This document shows positions 7,758-42,997 of a stretch of 64,000 bases of DNA, in pieces. The DNA is from a virus (Duplodnaviria > Caudoviricetes). Made by a program: the position numbers and the translations under genes. The stretch covers positions 13,537 through 77,536 of the IMG/VR virus record IMGVR_UViG_3300037295_000333; one strand, given 5' to 3'. Numbering within the stretch: the first letter of the stretch is position 1; each line of letters opens with the position of its first letter. The notes below the pieces were generated by a model. The model was not told the origin of the DNA, did no database searches, and saw nothing but the letters and a program-made list of their open reading frames with translations.

Positions 7758-8609
7758 TTAAATTGCAATTTCCAATTTTTTGCTCAATACTGTTGGTTCA
7801 TATGGATTTTCAATAATAAAATCAGAAAAAGTATATAAGTAAAAGTTTTTATTCTCTTTTAATTTCATAGAAAAAGATTTTTCTGAACATTCTCTTTCCC
7901 TTAATTCATCAATGGCAAACATATGCCTATCGTATATATGAATGTTTTGAACATTGTATTTAAAATTATTTAATTTATGTTCAATTCCTGTTTTATAAGT
8001 AAGGTGCCCACAAATAGCCATTCCAAACATTACATATTGAATTGGATTAATTGAGGACGTCATTATGTAATCTTGTGATCTTTGATTTAGTGTCATATCA
8101 ACATACATTTCCCCATTTGATTTTGATAAAGTATATAATGTTTCATAAGCGCATGGAACCAATGCTTTATTATCTTCAATCATTTGTTGCTCTTGCCACA
8201 AATTAATTATATGCCTTCTACTAAATGGATTGCCTATCATTCCATTTAATAACTTATTCATTAAGTCATATCTTCTTACTGTGTGACCGTATGTTTGACC
8301 AATACAATTATTTTTCACTTTAAATGGTTTCCACCAAGGCTGAATCGAAGGATGCATTTCTGAGATAATGTTTGTTTGATTTATATAAATTGCCTCAATA
8401 TCAAACCATGCACATCTAATGGCTGTAGGTCTTAATGAGGTTATTGGGAATTCTACTTTTAATATGTTGTAATCAAAAGTTTTTTGAGTAATGAATTTAC
8501 TATAAGATTGAGTTCCATCTAACCATTTAGGTCTAGGATTTTTATCCCATTGTCCAAAAGTATTTATTTCCTCTAATGTTTCTAAAAAGTATTTATCGGC
8601 TTTGTTCAT
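7758..8609 (-). CDS. thyA: thymidylate synthase
   Basis: GQTYG, PFSRRHIINLW, LVPC catalytic Cys, NQRSQD, N of SSINP, NIHIYDRH; start moved to MNKADK at 8609. Confidence 0.93.
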   Translation of the reverse strand: MNKADKYFLETLEEINTFGQWDKNPRPKWLDGTQSYSKFITQKTFDYNILKVEFPITSLRPTAIRCAWFDIEAIYINQTNIISEMHPSIQPWWKPFKVKNNCIGQTYGHTVRRYDLMNKLLNGMIGNPFSRRHIINLWQEQQMIEDNKALVPCAYETLYTLSKSNGEMYVDMTLNQRSQDYIMTSSINPIQYVMFGMAICGHLTYKTGIEHKLNNFKYNVQNIHIYDRHMFAIDELRERECSEKSFSMKLKENKNFYLYTFSDFIIENPYEPTVLSKKLEIAI

Positions 8610-8741
8610 TTTTATTTTAGTAATTATAATTTTAATACCTTTATAGCATGTAGTCAATAGTTGTGGTGCAATTAAAAATAACACAACACGTTATATAATT
8701 AATGCTCGGTTTAGTTCGGTTAATAAAGTTCGTGATTCTTG

Positions 8742-9467: not shown

Positions 9468-9563
9468 AAGTTATTTTTTAAGTTTATTTTTCAAAGATAG
9501 TTATAATAATTTAATATGCAAATAAAAAAACAAAAAAGCCTTTAAAAAAATAAGGGCTTAAAA

Positions 9564-9902
9564 TTAAATTTTCATTTCTTTTAATAAAAGATAAATGATA
9601 TTTATTTCATTGGAAGAAAATTTCTTGTAATCAATGTTTCTAATAAACCTTAACTTTATTTCAATTTTTAGTTTATCTGAATTTGATTCATCTGACTTTA
9701 TGTAAGATTCACCAAAATGTTTACCTCCCCCAATACCTTTATTGTCTTGTCTTATGCAAGATAAATCGGGTAAATATTTTCTATTAAAAACTTTATTTTC
9801 GCTATAAGCAAAATCATCAACTACTTTGTCAATAACAATTTTTTCCTCTGCCGTTCCAAATCTTAATTTATAAACAACGTCATTAATTTCTAAATTTTTC
9901 AT
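9564..9902 (-). CDS. hypothetical protein
   Basis: ORF track, in operon. Confidence 0.7.
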   Translation of the reverse strand: MKNLEINDVVYKLRFGTAEEKIVIDKVVDDFAYSENKVFNRKYLPDLSCIRQDNKGIGGGKHFGESYIKSDESNSDKLKIEIKLRFIRNIDYKKFSSNEINIIYLLLKEMKI

Positions 9903-9908
9903 ATATTT

Positions 9909-12900
9909 TTATTTTAATACTTTTAGAATACTTTTATTTGTAAGGGTTAATTGATTTCCCTTTGTCCACTTATCTTCATACTTTAAGTTTGCCGAAAAGA
10001 TGATTATAGACTTCTCACAGCCCGTTAATTCTTTTTCGTACAACATATACTCATCAGACCAAACTATCAGTTTAAATAGCTTATAATTGTGTTCTATGGT
10101 TAACCTTGCAAACTTTCCTTTCTTGCTTTTTGATACCTTACACTCTACAATGTAACCTCCAAATAATCTAAATATACCAAAACCTTGTTTTGTGTTTAGT
10201 TCAATTTGAGTAAAAAATTTAGTATCAATTCCCATTGTACTGGCTATTTCACTATAATTTACATCAGCTAATCCAGTTAACTCTTTTTGCTTTAACAGCC
10301 ACCACCACTTTTGTGTAATTGCACCAACGGTATAGCAATCCTTTTCTTTGTTTGCAATTTTTACTCCATACCTTTCTCTAAAGTCTTTGATTAAATTACC
10401 TCTTTCTGACTCATTTTTAATATGATATAAGCGGTCAAATGCTCCAGAAGATATAAGTGCTTCATAAGTTTGTTTTTTTACCTTAGAGCCTGTAAAACTA
10501 TGTCTGTCATGAAAGTCATCAAAATCTGTGTAGTCTCCATTCTTATCCCTTTCAGCAATTACCTGTAAAGCGGTATCTTCACCAATTCCTTTTATAGAAC
10601 CAATTCCCCAAAAGATATTTTGACTCTTCATATCTGAAATCATTTCTATTCCTGAGCCATTTATGTCAGATGGAAGTATCTTTACTTTTTTTGCAGAAAA
10701 TATTTCAGCTAAATATTTTAAAGTATCTTTTTCATTCGCATAGTCCAATGCAACTGTCCAATACTCTAATGGAAAATTAACCTTTAAATACATTCCCACA
10801 TAAGCCGTGAGGGCATAAGCTGCAGAATGCGATAAATTAAAAGAATATTTGGCAAACTCGAGCATAACAGACCAAATTGTGTTAAATTCTTGAGAAGAAC
10901 ACCCTTTTTTAACAAAGCCCTCTTTTACTATATCTTTCCATCCCTCTAAAACAGATGCCTTTTTTTTACCCATTGCACGTCTAACGTCATCAGCTTCTCT
11001 CATACTTAGTCCTCCAACTTGTTGGCAAACTTGCATGATCTGTTCTTGATAGCAATTGTGGACAATTAAACCTCCAGAATGAAAACTATGTTCGTCTTTA
11101 ACTGTAATGTCATACGTATCAATAATTTCATTTTCTGTTATTCTAAGTATTCTTCCCCAAACCTTATGGTTAACATCTTCAAATTCAGTAAACTTTGATA
11201 TGGTGTCTCTTGAAACATAAGATGCATTACAATTTTTATTATAATATCTTGCCCTCATAGATTTCCATTTAGGTTTTGAACTCCAAATTAATCCATTAGT
11301 AGGGTAGTATATTTTAGCACCTTTAAAGTCTTCTTTGATTATTCTAAACTTTAACTTATCGTTTTTTCCAATTGATACTGTAAAAACATTTCCTTCTTCT
11401 TTGTAGGTACAAGGTATCCTGTAAGACTGTAACGCTAAAAATAAATCATAAGAAAGTTCTTTGTTTGCAAGTCTTATTATTCCATTTTGAAAACATCCAT
11501 CACCTTCAAATAACCCAGAAAGCATATGTATTGAATAATTTTTTGGAAGTCTTTTTGTGTATACATTTTGCTTGTTAGTTATTCCATATTCCAATAACTT
11601 TTTTTTCATTAGATTAACTTTAAAATCTTTAGAAAAATAAGCATTTTTGTTTTCTGCAAATGAAACTTGAATTCTATGACAACCTCCAAGCCTTTCTTTG
11701 TTTTTACGAAAAGTTACCTTTGGAACTGAAGTTGGAAATACTTTTTTAACTACTTTTAAAACTTCATTGGTTCTATCTTCGCTGCCTACGTATATTGTAG
11801 GCGTACACTTTCCGCCTCCCTCAGCTAAATAGTAACCTATTAGCCAATGTTCTAAAGCAGTATCTTTATCAATATCATCAAATTTTTCCTCACCTATCCA
11901 GTTCCCCTTTATTAAGTCTGATGAAGTGTTTAAATCTTTTGCCTCTTTCCATCCAAACTGAGTCATAACTTTATGATCTGGGGTCAATATTAATTCTTCC
12001 CCAAAAGTAGTTCTTATTCTTATGGTTTCTTTTTTTCCAGAATAAAAACTATCAGTTACTGTATCCCAATTATTTGACTTATTTCTTACTTTATCATTTA
12101 TTTTTACATCTTTTAATTTAACTATACCTCTTTTTGTAATTATATTTGATTCTCCAGAAAGACACAGAAGTCCATAGGTATTTTTTGTTATTTCCTCAGT
12201 CCCCCAAAGATATTCCACTTTTCTCCCCTCATTTTTACATTTTACGTAAATTTCATGATAGTGGTTCTCCATTGGTCCAGGTCTGTAAAGTGCATTGGCT
12301 GCAGTTAAATCATTAATATTTTTTGGCTTTAATGCTTTTGAATATTCAGTTAATCCTTCTGACCCCATTTGAAAAATATCACCGTTCCAACCATTTCCAA
12401 AATACCTGTAGACTTCAGGGTCATCAGGTAAATTATATATATCTGGCACTTCTTTGCCATTATTTTTTATGATTTCTAATATGTCGCCAAACTTGTCTAA
12501 TTGCTTAATTCCTAAAATATCTTCTTTTAAAAAACCAGCATCTTCCATTTGTCCACCATCCCACTCTGAAACAATTAATCCGTTTTGACTTCTCATTGGA
12601 GACCATTGTGAAGCTGTCATAACTTCAGGGAAAATAATCATTGCACACGGGTGAATTGATTTGGTTTTTGGCTGATTTAGTATTGTAGGCAATAATTTAA
12701 AGATGTCAGACTGTTGTTTTATGTATTGCTTTAGTCTAGGCTCTGTAGTTGAACGCTTGAATAAATCTAACATTGTAGAATCTTTTTCGTCTATAATGGC
12801 AGTCATTAAGTTTGCATTTGAAAAGTCATTCTCAAATTGCCTGTCCAAATCCTTTATTGCTCCTTTCAATTTTAAAGTTACCGTTGAGCCTACTGAGCAT

Positions 12901-12977
12901 ATCTGATTTTCTCCAAATCTTTTTTCCATATATGACTTTATATAAGCCCTATCTTTCCCTGCAAAATCGGAGTCAAT
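9909..12977 (-). CDS. dnaE: DNA polymerase III alpha, C-terminal piece (palm to OB fold) with cis intein; open frame begins upstream of the annotated ATG 12929 at ATT-GAC-TCC-GAT-TTT (IDSDF)
   Basis: IDSDFAGKDRAYIKSYMEKRFG, SIHPCA, KEDILGI, GDIFQM, LYRPGP, YQEQIM, RRAMGKK, AKYSFNLSHS, GIGSIKGIG. Confidence 0.9.
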   Translation of the reverse strand: MDSDFAGKDRAYIKSYMEKRFGENQICSVGSTVTLKLKGAIKDLDRQFENDFSNANLMTAIIDEKDSTMLDLFKRSTTEPRLKQYIKQQSDIFKLLPTILNQPKTKSIHPCAMIIFPEVMTASQWSPMRSQNGLIVSEWDGGQMEDAGFLKEDILGIKQLDKFGDILEIIKNNGKEVPDIYNLPDDPEVYRYFGNGWNGDIFQMGSEGLTEYSKALKPKNINDLTAANALYRPGPMENHYHEIYVKCKNEGRKVEYLWGTEEITKNTYGLLCLSGESNIITKRGIVKLKDVKINDKVRNKSNNWDTVTDSFYSGKKETIRIRTTFGEELILTPDHKVMTQFGWKEAKDLNTSSDLIKGNWIGEEKFDDIDKDTALEHWLIGYYLAEGGGKCTPTIYVGSEDRTNEVLKVVKKVFPTSVPKVTFRKNKERLGGCHRIQVSFAENKNAYFSKDFKVNLMKKKLLEYGITNKQNVYTKRLPKNYSIHMLSGLFEGDGCFQNGIIRLANKELSYDLFLALQSYRIPCTYKEEGNVFTVSIGKNDKLKFRIIKEDFKGAKIYYPTNGLIWSSKPKWKSMRARYYNKNCNASYVSRDTISKFTEFEDVNHKVWGRILRITENEIIDTYDITVKDEHSFHSGGLIVHNCYQEQIMQVCQQVGGLSMREADDVRRAMGKKKASVLEGWKDIVKEGFVKKGCSSQEFNTIWSVMLEFAKYSFNLSHSAAYALTAYVGMYLKVNFPLEYWTVALDYANEKDTLKYLAEIFSAKKVKILPSDINGSGIEMISDMKSQNIFWGIGSIKGIGEDTALQVIAERDKNGDYTDFDDFHDRHSFTGSKVKKQTYEALISSGAFDRLYHIKNESERGNLIKDFRERYGVKIANKEKDCYTVGAITQKWWWLLKQKELTGLADVNYSEIASTMGIDTKFFTQIELNTKQGFGIFRLFGGYIVECKVSKSKKGKFARLTIEHNYKLFKLIVWSDEYMLYEKELTGCEKSIIIFSANLKYEDKWTKGNQLTLTNKSILKVLK
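11055..12164 (-). mobile_element. cis-splicing intein with LAGLIDADG homing endonuclease in DnaE (370 aa)
   Basis: TYGLL|CLSGESNIIT...LTPDHKV...WLIGYYLAEG...LSGLFEGDG...GGLIVHN|CYQEQIM. Confidence 0.93.
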
Positions 12978-13045
12978 TAAATGTCGGGAAGAGTGCCTTC
13001 ATAAAGCTTCTTCCCGACTACTTGTTTTATAGTTTTTACAATCAT
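12977..13045 (-). CDS. dnaE: 22-codon DnaE mini-ORF MIVKTIKQVVGKKLYEGTLPDI* (probable N-terminus of the last DnaE chain)
   Basis: ATG at 13045 in an A-rich context 7 nt after the previous stop; ends in LPDI, the first half of the DnaE catalytic PDIDxDF motif. Confidence 0.8.
   Translation of the reverse strand: MIVKTIKQVVGKKLYEGTLPDI
12983..13018 (-). promoter_or_regulatory. GC-rich hairpin immediately 5' of the candidate take-off codon
   Basis: GTCGGGAAGA (13018-13009) is the perfect reverse complement of TCTTCCCGAC (12992-12983); 16-nt loop with an inner GCTTT/AAGGC helix. Confidence 0.75.
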
Positions 13046-13052
13046 TTTATTT

Positions 13053-13421
13053 TTAATTATAGTTTATAATTTTGTCGCCCTCAAGCAAGTCTTCGACAAA
13101 TATAATACTTTCTTTTTGATTTCTAACTATTTTTATTAAACTTCCTTCTGTTAAAATTATATTTTCTAAATCTGTTTTTATTTCAAATGCAGGACAATCT
13201 CTCAGTTCCCCCATTCTTCCTACATTTAGGAATCTTTCAAAGAGTAGGTCAAATTCAATGGGATCAATTTGTATTATTCCAAGTAAGTAGGAAACAAGGC
13301 TTCCTCCAGCTGAGTTGTGAACTATTGCACCATTTACACTATAGCTATGATCTTGTGTTTGTACACCAATGTCATAAACTTTTCCTGTATGTTGTAAGTA
13401 TTTTTTAGACTTTAGTTTCAT
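13053..13421 (-). CDS. dnaE: DnaE middle piece: 36-aa split intein C-part, extein, degenerate Hint-like tail
   Basis: [20 protein letters not shown]...GAIVHN|[33 protein letters not shown] followed by 53 aa not expected in DnaE. Confidence 0.9.
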
Positions 13422-15840
13422 TGTAAAATTTTATTTTATAGTTATAGTTATGTACATATCTTCTTTTTGAAATATATTTGCAAGTTAAGTCTTTTTCCTG
13501 AATTATATTATAATTTTCTTCACATAATTCAATTTTAGCATAATGTGACTTTTTATTTACTTGAATTAATCTTTCACTTAATAAGTTATCCATATTCCTC
13601 TTTACTTCTATAACCTTGCCGTTAACAATAAAGTCTGGAAAATAACTTCTATATTCTTCATTGTCTTTAATTTTGTATTTTATTGGAAGTCTATCATAAT
13701 TTTTAAAATTAATTATATTTAAATTTTTATCACAGTCTATTATGTAAGCCAATTCTAATAATCCATTAAATATAATTTTTCCAAATCTAACAGTATGAAC
13801 TTCTCCGCTATTTTTAAGTGCATTTGTAACATTTTTTATATATTTTGGATTACTTATATAAAGGTTTCTCATTATAGCTGAAGCTTTATCTTTATTTTCT
13901 TTTACATTCCAATATTTTTGCGCATTTATTTTATTATTTAATTTTTGATTTGGCTTGTTTTGTGCTATTATCTGAGCCTTAGAGTTATTACTTTTTGCTA
14001 ATTTAGAATTTAAAGCCTCACTTAATGCACATTTACTGCAATTGTTTAATTTGTGAACATTTATTTTTAATCCTGATATAGATTTGCTATATTTTTTTTC
14101 ACATTTTAAACAAAAATCAGTAAAACTTCTTTTACTTGAAAAACCATTTTTTAAAAATAATAAAGCATCATTAAAGTTCATTTTACCTTCATAAACTTTT
14201 AGTAAAACAGATACACTACATCCTATTTTTTTAACTGCATCTAAAAATTTACCTTGCCTTTTATTTTCTTGTACTTCATCAAGTTCAGTAAGTTTATCGG
14301 CTTCCACCCAGCCCCTATTTTTTGTAAAAAACTTGTGATCTTTTGTGCATCTTATTACATTTTCTCCAAAATTAAGTTCCACTATTTCTTCATTTATATC
14401 GTAAATAAAAGTATTTATTACTTCTGACTTTCCAAAAAAGTGATTAAAGGTATTGTCTCCAACTTTAACATCTTCAATACTTTTAAATGTTCCGTTTGAC
14501 ATTTTTACCTTACTGCCTGCAACAAAACAACCTCTGCCTATTCCAGTCAACATTCCCTTTTCTTTTGCCTCAGCTATAATATCTCTTTGTACTAAAAAGT
14601 AGTCTATTACGTCACCTTTTTTCAAAACTGATATTTCTTCTTTTAGTCTTTCTACATATTTATTTTTATCTACTATTTTTTTTTGTGCAAATCCTAACTT
14701 TATGTAATGCATAAACAAATCTTCATTTGCCTTAAAGTTGTCTTTTTCCCACTCATTCATCTTATATTTTGGAAGCCTTCTGTTAACCGTATCATACATA
14801 AAATTACATTGTGATACTAATTCATCTAAATTTTTATTTGATTCCTTATACAGCCTAATCCAGCTTGTATTGCCTTGTTCAAACAATCCTATTAATTCAG
14901 ATGCATATATATCATTGTTCTTAAAATATTGATTTTTTGTTTTGTCGCTAAACTTTTTTCCAATTCCCCAAAGAATTTCTCTTGCTTCCCAATCAGATTT
15001 TTCCAAACAATAAGCGTCAAAAATTGCTATTGGCTTTAAATCAGATTTTAAATACAATTCTAAATTATCTATATATTTTTTATCTGTTTCTGCAATATCG
15101 AATTCTACCGTATCTACCATATAAAAATCAGCTTGTTTAAACCTGCTTTCAAACGATGTGGTTTTGGGATCTGTAATTACAAAAATTCCTTCTAAATTAT
15201 CTTTTAGAAAATCTTCTTTTACTGCAGTGTCTCCATTCACGTTTATTATCTCACTAAATTTTAATAAATTAAGCCAACCTTGAAAGTTTTTTGTATATAG
15301 TTTTACTTCATAACTTTCTTTTTCATTCACCACACTCAAGGTCATTCCAATTATTGACTTAATGTTAGAATCTTTACAATCATTTTGAAACCCCATTACA
15401 CCTGACAAAGAGTTTTTTTCACAAATTCCCAGTGTGTTTACGCCTAAAAATTTAGCTTTTTTTATCCAATCCTTATATGAGCCAATTCCATTTAACAATT
15501 CATTTCCTGAGTGAATTCCTAAAAATGATTTTGTAGGTAATTTTTGTTTTGCTTTACCTGTATTTTTTAATTCTGTCATTGATACATCTTCACCTACTTT
15601 TTGTATATACCAAATTCCTCCAAACTCATATACAATTCCATTTGCGTATTGGTCTACTTTAGAATAAATATCTTTGTGTATTTGAAATTTCTCATCAAAT
15701 ATAGTTATATTTTTATCTACAATCATAAACACTTCATCTTTTAGTATTAGATGACCCTCTTCTATTGTGTAGTCTAATAGGTGTCTATCACAATGTTTTT
15801 TTATACTTTTTAATTGATCCATAATGTTAATTTTTATCAA
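13405..15840 (-). CDS. dnaE: DnaE N-terminal piece (PHP domain) fused to split intein N-part carrying a PD-(D/E)xK-like endonuclease
   Basis: [25 protein letters not shown]|CFVAGSKV (Cys at 14529), CTKDHKF, then [15 protein letters not shown]; ends without HN, overlapping the next ATG by 17 nt. Confidence 0.92.
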
Positions 15841-15901
15841 AGATAGTTTATTTTAATTATAAACCAAAAAAAACCCTTAAAATTAATTAAGGGTAAAGCT
15901 T

Positions 15902-16537
15902 TTATTTTTTATCAGATGATCCGAATCCTTTTTCTGCTCTTTCACTTTTAGTAATATCATTTGAAAAAGACATTTCAAAATCATGCATCTTGTAAGGTAT
16001 TAATTGAGAAACCGCTTTTCCTTTTCCTATAAATACTTCTTCATCCGATAAGTTAAAAAGTTTTAACTTTATCTCTCCTCTATATCCATTGTCAATTATT
16101 CCACCAAATGAAATTACATCTTGATTGAATCCAAGTCCTGAACGGCTTTCAAACTTTATAAAATAGCCTTCACTTATATCTGCTACTTGTAAACCTATTG
16201 GAACCACCGCTGAACTAAATGGATTTATTGCAATATCTTCTAAGCAAAATACATCATACCCTGCATCTCCTGTTTGTGGGTTGTTGTGATTTTTTTCTGG
16301 AAGCCTTGCATTTTTATCTAATTTTATAAACTTTACTTTAAATGTTTTCTTTATTTCTTCTATTTTAAATTCTTTTTCCTCGTCCCATTCGTACCAATAA
16401 ATATGTTTTTCTTCTGTTGAACCCCAATTAAAAGCTTGACCTAAAAAATCTGTTGTTTTGTCCCAATATTGATCTGCATTTTTTTGATGCTCTAATGCTT
16501 TTTCTTTTACTTCTTGTGGTAGTTGTGATATTTTCAT
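15902..16537 (-). CDS. dut: trimeric dUTPase with ~65-aa N-terminal extension
   Basis: DAGYDV, ESRSGLG, GGIIDNGYRGEI, ERAEKGFGSSD. Confidence 0.93.
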   Translation of the reverse strand: MKISQLPQEVKEKALEHQKNADQYWDKTTDFLGQAFNWGSTEEKHIYWYEWDEEKEFKIEEIKKTFKVKFIKLDKNARLPEKNHNNPQTGDAGYDVFCLEDIAINPFSSAVVPIGLQVADISEGYFIKFESRSGLGFNQDVISFGGIIDNGYRGEIKLKLFNLSDEEVFIGKGKAVSQLIPYKMHDFEMSFSNDITKSERAEKGFGSSDKK

Positions 16538-42919: not shown

Positions 42920-42997
42920 TGATAAAGAGTCAGGATTCGAACCTGAAAGAATTGGGGTTTTTGTCCACTCGTTTTGCCTACTTAAACTATCTCTCTA
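42920..42997 (-). tRNA. degenerate tRNA-like element (anticodon arm mispaired)
   Basis: TAGAGAG/CTCTTTA acceptor, GTTT-AAGTAGGCA-AAAC D arm, TCAGG-TTCGAAT-CCTGA T arm; anticodon loop ACAAAAA lacks U33. Confidence 0.6.

Follow-up and report, generated by a model that had tools for sequence, protein, structure and literature searches.

A phage DnaE gene in four pieces: evidence for a split intein, a putative Hint-derived clasp, a probable five-nucleotide stop-hop and a cis-splicing intein

The DNA stretch analysed here (the window) comprises 64 kb of a 77.5-kb IMG/VR virus record, G000, assembled from a metagenome and derived from an uncultured phage. Its gene for the DNA polymerase DnaE lies on the minus strand (positions 15840-9909), with consecutive parts spread over four open reading frames (ORFs) in three frames. 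We consider it fairly likely that these parts specify a two-subunit DnaE combining a split intein, a catalytically dead Hint clasp, a hop of 5 nucleotides (nt) and a cis-splicing intein, i.e. that selfish elements colonised this gene at least four times. On balance, we further propose that the hop site belongs to a mobile cassette of hairpin and stop-hop, which spreads among split phage DnaE genes, probably as the immunity part of homing-endonuclease elements, and which would represent the first such set of short translational hops in nature (of +5 to +22 nt, grading into +1), driven by an mRNA hairpin re-forming at the exit side of the ribosome. In this phage, the cassette would reside within a gene whose expression requires splicing both in trans and in cis, together with a dead split intein as the clasp of the subunits.

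Read along the minus strand, the gene begins with ORF A (15840-13405, 811 aa), in which a 437-aa N-terminal extein (15840-14530) with a PHP domain (Pfam E value 1.4e-13) and the start of the polymerase core (DNA_pol3_alpha residues 20-74) ends in GIGRG and is directly followed by CFVAG. ORF B (13421-13053, 122 aa) joins AIVHN to SAGGS and carries 33 aa of DnaE (SAGGS...FERFLNVGR, 13313-13215; DNA_pol3_alpha 66-98), contiguous with GIGRG in relatives, plus a tail of 53 aa and the stop codon (13214-13053). It is followed by an ORF of 22 codons (13045-12977) terminating as LPDI-TAA, and finally by ORF C, which extends from DSDF at 12974 to 9909, has its first ATG at 12929, covers DNA_pol3_alpha 121-260 and the finger and HHH domains, and contains an intein (GLL/C...VHN/CYQEQ). 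The predicted mature subunits 1 and 2 would have 437+86 = 523 aa and 22+15+255+381 = 673 aa, respectively, i.e. the same sizes as the first and second DnaE genes of relatives.

A sequence-only reading of this DNA had already assembled one DnaE from four reading frames, the last of them starting at 12977. The four ORFs are confirmed by parts that sum to the 523 and 673 aa of the relatives; the frames number only three, however, with ORFs B and C sharing one, and that of DSDF opens at 12974. Each of the four junction motifs is either contiguous or identically broken in relatives, and the breaks are therefore not due to chance. The comparison with relatives, which the same reading had named as a check, explained each join and bore out its three predicted junction peptides. 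The mechanisms that it had suggested also proved to be the best-supported ones, i.e. trans-splicing at GRG/SAGGS, where four IMG/VR phages carry the same split intein, a non-covalent junction at FLNVGR...LPDI, recoding in PDIDSDF, specifically as a +5 stop-hop, and cis-splicing at GLL/CYQEQ.

The break within the catalytic motif PDIDSDF consists of five extra bases. While relatives read GAY ATT GAY at this position (intact gap-free site CTTCCNGAYATTGAY), the window reads GAC ATT TA ATT GAC: the last sense codon, ATT (12982-12980), precedes TAA (12979-12977) and recurs 5 nt on (12977-12975), immediately before GAC. The untranslated bases would be 12979-12975, with decoding resuming at GAC 12974. 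ORF C offers no start codon upstream of 12929 from which DSDF would be included, and some DnaE homologues start, as ORF C does, at the internal ME.RFG or show odd N-termini. From the contigs of these homologues, together with stem scans of IMG/VR and a metagenome collection, we obtained 15 distinct DnaE loci, including the window, that are broken in or just before PDIDxDF (L048 and L050, near-identical to L047 and L049, were excluded from the count). They comprise 11 gap sequences of +5, +6, +7, +9 or +22 nt, found in 14 loci, and one shift of a single nucleotide.

Written as take-off codon, inserted bases and the codon at which decoding would resume, the gaps are ATT-TA ATT-GAC (window) and ATT-TG ATT-GAT (L047) for +5; ATT-TAA ATT-GAT (L046), ATT-TAA GTC-GAT (L049 and L053), ATT-TAG GTT-GAT (L222) and CCG-TAA CCA-GAC (L223) for +6; ATT-TGAG ATT-GAT (L063) and CCA-TAAT TCA-GAT (L232) for +7; ATC-TAA GGG ATC-GAT (L224) and ATC-TAA GGA ATT-GAT (L225) for +9; and ATC, 19 nt plus ATT, then GAT (L052, L084 and L132) for +22. 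L233, with CCC TGA C, shows the classic +1 shift pattern. The take-off codon is immediately followed on its 3' side by a stop codon in all 15 loci, with all three stop codons in use, and the landing codon equals the take-off codon at least at positions 2-3 everywhere (AUU/AUU, AUC/AUU, AUC/AUC, CCG/CCA, AUU/GUY and CCA/UCA) and in most loci is either the same codon or a synonymous one for the same tRNA, so that skipping the gap restores PDIDxDF exactly. The contig of L047 was recorded in 15 samples.

Frameshifting alone is ruled out by the in-frame variants (+6, +9), and for the window a -1 or +1 frameshift was rejected since no slippery overlap fits. Read-through or a change of the genetic code is ruled out by the out-of-frame variants and by the presence of all three stop codons in the gaps; stop-codon reassignment was rejected also because the window's own genes end in TAA. 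The best reading of the PDIDSDF gap is programmed translational bypassing, a putative short counterpart of the T4 gene 60/MobA system, and re-pairing of the P-site tRNA would account for all gap-bearing loci.

Several further cases touch on this family. In L233 (1690-1720, protein P0074), one extra C (CTG CCC TGA C vs CTG CCT GAC) follows a GCGUCC/GGACGC hairpin, and this CCC-UGA pattern points to a graded series between a +1 shift and a hop of 22 nt. In L223 (2449-2470, CCG-TAA-CCA) and L232 (415-440, CCA-TAAT-TCA), take-off would be at a Pro codon lying two codons further upstream; with hairpins unrelated in sequence to that of the other loci, their cassettes look independently invented or strongly diverged. 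The odd N-termini of gene calls before PDIDxDF in P0067 (MGRYHNPDID..), P0052 (MSWPDID..) and P0118 (MVPSPDID..) probably hide more gap or shift variants. Rejected as members were P0051, whose apparent gap is a scaffold N-run, L045, the sole IMG/VR match to the exact sequence ATTTAATT and a chance match in an unrelated gene, as well as L051 and most of the 88 metagenome matches to the stem pattern, which are unrelated palindromes.

All members of the family share a hairpin directly upstream of the gap. In the window, an outer stem of 9 bp plus an inner stem (GUCGGGAAG-N18-CUUCCCGAC, 13018-12983) ends at the take-off codon, with the codons for L-P-D forming the 3' arm. Hairpins of -17 to -23 kcal/mol ending at the take-off codon were found in 13 of 13 loci folded together, while those of L232 and L233 end 1-2 nt before it. 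The common stem GUCGGGAAG/CUUCCCGAC contains a G.U pair in L222 and L224 and two compensatory pairs in L225; overall there are three unrelated stem sequences, as those of L223/L233 and of L232, with Pro take-off, differ from the common one. None of eight intact relatives has the hairpin (-3 to -9 kcal/mol), including L144, which encodes the same VGKKLVDGTLPDI peptide by other codons. The window hairpin reaches -19.5 kcal/mol, compared with -3.1 +/- 1.9 kcal/mol after randomisation of synonymous codons (0/5000 as low). It therefore far exceeds what the peptide imposes and was built from synonymous choices. A second hairpin enclosing take-off codon and stop was found in the 22-nt variant (L052). 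We infer that the hairpin stimulates the hop.

The distribution of the gap resembles that of a mobile element: gap-bearing genes are scattered among intact sisters, with 10 changes in a quick tree, at least 6 of them forced by well-supported branches. Nucleotide identity between gap-bearing loci peaks over the cassette, and genes for GIY-YIG, HNH/NUMOD4 and NUMOD3 nucleases lie between the two DnaE genes, just upstream of the gap, in L222, L223 and L046. Here, a regulatory role has to be weighed, i.e. that the interruptions are kept because rates of hopping and splicing set the timing of the replicase or the stoichiometry of its subunits, which would be compatible with colonisation by selfish elements. 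An often-failing hop would reduce subunit 2 relative to subunit 1, and conditional protein splicing is known in other systems. Yet close relatives do without both inteins and the gap, the cassette is scattered on the tree and adjoins homing-nuclease genes, and no regulatory element was found, which leaves this role a small share of the likelihood. The earlier proposal that maturation of the replicase is 'gated' at these steps found nothing in its support, as each interruption is of a selfish-element type and close relatives work without inteins and gap.

The 5-base gap might instead reflect an assembly or sequencing error or a recent inactivation, the record being slightly wrong or DnaE a pseudogene. 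The record is indeed derived from a metagenome, and no second DnaE sequence with the exact ATTTAATT was found in IMG/VR or the metagenome scan. However, the 14 other loci come from different samples and show variant gaps at the same spot with the same logic of stop, landing codon and hairpin; since samples are independent and gap sequences differ, a sequencing error is unlikely. Moreover, the hairpin needs coordinated synonymous choices and is absent from intact relatives, while the remaining DnaE is open and conserved. Neither PolA, PolB nor a second DnaE was found in the genome, estimated to be 96 % complete, and DnaE is thus its sole DNA polymerase. Coordinated features in a sole polymerase argue against a pseudogene, and we regard error or inactivation as unlikely overall.

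Upstream of the hop site, GIGRGSAGGS is uninterrupted in protein alignments of relatives. In the window, GIGRG leads into the N-terminal half of an intein (IntN) with Cys1 and a block B of TKDH, about 100 aa, followed by a fused nuclease domain of about 270 aa and the stop codon (14529-13405); IntN aligns with L004, L005, L007 and L008. The 36-aa C-terminal half (IntC, MKLKSKKY...AIVHN, 13421-13314) precedes SAGGS, and its MKL start and VHN/S end are invariant in alignment with the four relatives. These four IMG/VR phage contigs (L004, L005/L006, L007 and L008; L007 being a high-GC phage) carry the same intein at the same site, laid out as DnaE N-part plus IntN (89-105 aa), stop, free-standing nuclease gene and an MKL.. 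ORF with an IntC of 35-36 aa. L004 has a GIY-YIG nuclease, and the nucleases of L005 and L007 are of a YYPDF..IEVK type. In the window, a nuclease domain (CxxC..CxxC, then YFPDF..IEVK) is not separate, as in the relatives, but in frame with IntN; it matches the free-standing nuclease ORF of L005 (E value 2e-16), has no meaningful sequence match in the PDB, and its weak Pfam matches to TnsA-N and DUF7487 suggest a PD-(D/E)xK domain.

The hallmarks of a split intein are present, i.e. C1, TxxH, HN and a +1 Ser (..DHSY..AIVHN/S in ORF B), with weak Pfam matches to Intein_splicing and Hom_end_hint, two halves on separate ORFs and the nuclease domain between them. We read GRG/S as the site of a genuine split intein that belongs to the 'fractured gene' kind already known, the fusion of its nuclease to IntN being unusual; split inteins with a free-standing nuclease gene between the halves have been described, three DnaE loci included (Dassa et al. 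2009, PMC2677866). ORFs A and B could also have been one intein gene spliced in cis, with the +1 change of frame being an error or a frameshift. The nuclease is in frame with IntN, like in ordinary inteins, and both frames overlap over 26 nt, followed by an A-run. Yet the IntC of all four relatives also begins with MKL.. at an ATG following or overlapping the stop of the nuclease gene, and the ATG of ORF B (13421), which overlaps the end of ORF A (stop 13405) by 17 nt, sits in the sole 26 nt (13430-13405) open in both frames. We therefore consider cis-splicing of a single A+B gene quite unlikely. In distant marine phages with this split intein (L005:6800-8430 and L015:6731-7900), DnaE is further divided into two genes that lie apart, with unrelated genes between them.

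The break between FLNVGR and LPDI also occurs in cultured phages. In the annotations of phages phi13:1 and Larrie, DnaE occupies two neighbouring genes, split at exactly this position; L003 is broken at the same position, and the start M..I......KL..G[TS]LPDIDxDF is shared by more than 100 proteins of about 673 aa from metagenomes. Judged from these sequences, the break before LPDID is clade-wide. Exceptions are rare: P0045 and P0079 are fused and carry about 85 inserted aa, and P0084 and P0087 lack any insert (FLNPGRMEVSLPDID). Both forms nest within the split clade in a quick tree, so that the split, Hint remnant included, may have been gained and lost in its turn, or repaired by recombination.

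What the insert might be was addressed with an AlphaFold2 (AF2) model of the insert region of the fused P0045, built from an alignment of both halves. The insert, which is the confident part of this model (predicted local distance difference test, pLDDT, 66-89), is all-beta, and the equivalent of the subunit 2 head forms one long strand. In a structure search of 48,161 PDB chains, the best 13 were all inteins or Hint domains (Z scores 8.0-5.3), among them PI-PfuI (8.0), the PolII mini-intein (7.8), gp41-1 (7.1) and the Hedgehog Hint domain (5.7); Hint domains also ranked at the top with Foldseek. The insert of about 70-85 aa aligns roughly to residues 37-107 of a mini-intein, and the gene break falls at the split-intein break, i.e. 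the nuclease insertion point. It lacks the complete Hint fold, catalytic Cys/Ser, C-terminal Asn and +1 nucleophile of a functional intein: its Cys is Arg in phi13:1, Larrie, L049, L222 and L223, and no terminal Asn is present in the FLNxGR-LPDID insert of the aligned relatives. Because catalytic residues are missing and the domain is too short, we interpret it as a shrunken dead split intein rather than a working one. The 53-aa tail of subunit 1, which corresponds to the N-part of this truncated, non-catalytic Hint-like domain and is kept in relatives, probably pairs with the 17-aa head of subunit 2 by strand complementation, as a clasp that would keep the halves together non-covalently. That head is part of the first 22 codons (MIVKTIKQVVGKKLYEGTLPDI, 13045-12980), which consist of an N-terminal extension plus LPDI, are alike in more than 100 relatives and were modelled as contributing a complementing strand (residues 125-139). 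A truncated Hint clasp suggests a way in which a 'fractured' gene could outlive the loss of splicing.

ORF C is interrupted once more. Its 270-aa N-extein (DSDFAGK...TYGLL, 12974-12165), with DNA_pol3_alpha 121-260 and the finger domain, is separated from the 381-aa C-extein (CYQEQIM..., 11054-9909 including the stop), with HHH_6 (Pfam E value 9.9e-18) and the C-terminal part, by GLL/CLSG...VHN/CYQEQ. This 370-aa insert (12164-11055) has C1, a C-terminal HN, a +1 Cys, two LAGLIDADG-like motifs and Pfam matches to Intein_splicing (E value 6.5e-14) and, weakly, to LAGLIDADG_3 (0.005) and LAGLIDADG_1 (0.05), while relatives without it read GLL(I/V)YQEQ. By these features it is an ordinary LAGLIDADG intein, predicted to splice in cis. 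Another intein, at EFAKYGFNK/...N/SHSAAYA, was observed in P0014, P0097, P0108 and P0114, and P0014 and P0097 have a Cys at the empty GL.C/YQEQ site, possibly as a footprint of intein loss. The DnaE of this clade is an intein hot spot.

Taken together, each colonisation of DnaE by a selfish element would be undone at a different level. ORFs A and B would be trans-spliced at GRG/S through an IntN of about 100 aa and an IntC of 36 aa, yielding subunit 1 of 523 aa. Subunit 2 (673 aa) would start at ATG 13045, and 22 codons later the ribosome would stand with AUU in its P site and UAA in its A site. Just melted, the hairpin of 9 bp, which ends exactly at the take-off codon, would re-form behind the ribosome; peptidyl-tRNA-Ile would release, the mRNA slide by 5 nt and the tRNA re-pair with the next AUU. 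GAC would then be read next, restoring the catalytic PDIDSDF with the junction peptide EGTLPDIDSDFAGK, and the LAGLIDADG intein would excise itself at GLL/C. Finally, subunits 1 and 2 would be joined non-covalently via the catalytically dead split-Hint parts.

Termination at UAA with restart at or near the landing codon, giving a 22-aa peptide that ends in LPDI and a protein starting at DSDF or Met 12929, with the catalytic motif split or lost, is highly improbable: AUU and AUC can serve as rare start codons, the stop overlaps the landing codon as in coupled genes and the gene already tolerates pieces, but the landing codons GUC, GUU, CCA and UCA are not start codons and nevertheless agree with the take-off codon at positions 2-3. 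In addition, the 22-aa peptide would retain the first catalytic Asp, Met is absent from the ME.RFG position of L053 and L224, and the conserved placement of the hairpin with respect to the take-off codon would be left unexplained.

Several points weigh against the reading of a hop within a multiply colonised two-subunit DnaE. The support for every join is comparative or predicted, and splicing activity, hopping and its efficiency, and subunit association are what we infer from it. In four loci, the landing codon matches solely at positions 2-3 (GUC, GUU and UCA), and the exact TAATT gap of the window is represented by one sequence only, from an assembled metagenome record. The nascent chain at take-off measures merely 22 aa, which makes a peptide signal of the gene 60 type doubtful, and its pattern (M.V..I....GKKL..G[TS]LPDI) hardly differs from intact relatives; the efficiency of the hop could be low. 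With the nuclease fused to IntN, an unusual arrangement, trans-splicing might be hindered. The Hint clasp is moderately supported, since Z scores are middling and the model is that of a homologue, with a mean pLDDT of 60. The DnaE tree, finally, comes from a quick rather than a careful search.

Regarding the source of the window, the nearest cultured phages are members of Cbastvirus, i.e. the Cellulophaga phages phiST, phi13:1 and phi19:2 and Tenacibaculum phage Larrie (about 56-61 % protein identity), and phages of the window type appear to be phages of Bacteroidota, given these Cellulophaga and Tenacibaculum hosts. A megablast search against a phage collection gave no match to near-identical phage DNA, and a search of IMG/VR gave no close relatives of the window's own peptides. 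No group I or II intron or other known RNA was found by Rfam in the region 9500-16200 (E <= 1). ARAGORN called a single tRNA in the genome, a tRNA-Phe whose anticodon, AAA, is unusual (42921-42997, minus strand), and neither a phage-encoded tRNA-Ile nor a suppressor tRNA was found by this program. Downstream of DnaE, where relatives have a DNA ligase, the window has different genes: a 112-aa ORF without family (9902-9564, minus strand), a 241-aa DUF3223 protein (9467-8742, minus strand; E value 3e-14) and then a 308-aa ORF (7758-8684), which we take from its sequence to encode thymidylate synthase.

Programmed bypassing is a rare form of decoding, knowledge of which has long come mainly from T4 gene 60 with its homologues and from yeast mitochondria, and the literature searched yielded no account of a bypass in DnaE. 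The natural variants described here differ in gap length, stop codon, take-off codon and stem but share a hairpin that ends 0-2 nt before the take-off codon. Sharing one geometry, they form a ready-made mutational series, with which re-folding of the mRNA at the exit channel as the drive for sliding, and the requirement for a matching landing codon, can be tested. Bacteroidota are reported to use little Shine-Dalgarno pairing, and since the cultured relatives infect Bacteroidota, the DnaE hop sites could show bypassing without a Shine-Dalgarno element. There is also a consequence for annotation, as such DnaE genes are currently called fragments or pseudogenes.

The closest known counterpart is the bypass of T4 gene 60 within a MobA homing-endonuclease element (bioRxiv 10.1101/2022.08.31.505936; review PMC5009743). 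According to Manning & Atkins (bioRxiv 10.1101/2022.08.31.505936), who dealt with the topoisomerase only, this element splits the topoisomerase gene and comes with an N-terminal extension and the bypass. As in the DnaE family, an essential replication gene is in two parts, with a free-standing homing nuclease between them in some members, and an element-type N-terminal extension opens the downstream half, with a coding gap behind it. Both also have a stop directly after the take-off codon, a matching landing codon and a 5' stem-loop thought to drive sliding, for which a zippering role was proposed in gene 60 (PMC5009743), and the take-off stem-loop of gene 60 contains the stop, like that of the 22-nt variant L052. 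In contrast, the host gene is a topoisomerase gene without sequence similarity to DnaE, the gap measures 20-50 nt rather than 5-22 nt and the hop occurs at codon 46 rather than 22. Furthermore, the short DnaE variants lack a take-off stem-loop and a Shine-Dalgarno-like element, and most DnaE relatives have the gene split without the gap.

Natural in-frame stop-hops were not known according to the 2016 review (PMC5009743). Synthetic 'stop-hops' and +5/+6 hops in Escherichia coli (Weiss et al. 1987, as cited in PMC10732093 and PMC5009743) would be similar in that peptidyl-tRNA moves from the codon before the stop to a matching codon a few bases on, and ATT-TAA-ATT of L046 is exactly this pattern. 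As described in those citing papers, however, they are low-level events in artificial constructs, while the DnaE ones would be natural and recurrent, lie in an essential motif and have a dedicated hairpin.

The upstream part of the gene resembles the 'fractured genes' of PMC2677866 by its order of N-part with IntN, nuclease and IntC with C-part in phage-like DNA, by DnaE as the host gene and by a small IntC of 36 aa; it differs in that the nuclease is fused to IntN and probably of the TnsA-N/DUF7487-type PD-(D/E)xK rather than GIY-YIG or Vsr-like. The cyanobacterial split DnaE intein (Wu et al. 1998, as cited in PMC2677866) also provides DnaE from two genes by trans-splicing; as it is presented there, it occupies another insertion site, with its halves at distant loci, no nuclease and cellular organisms as its carriers.

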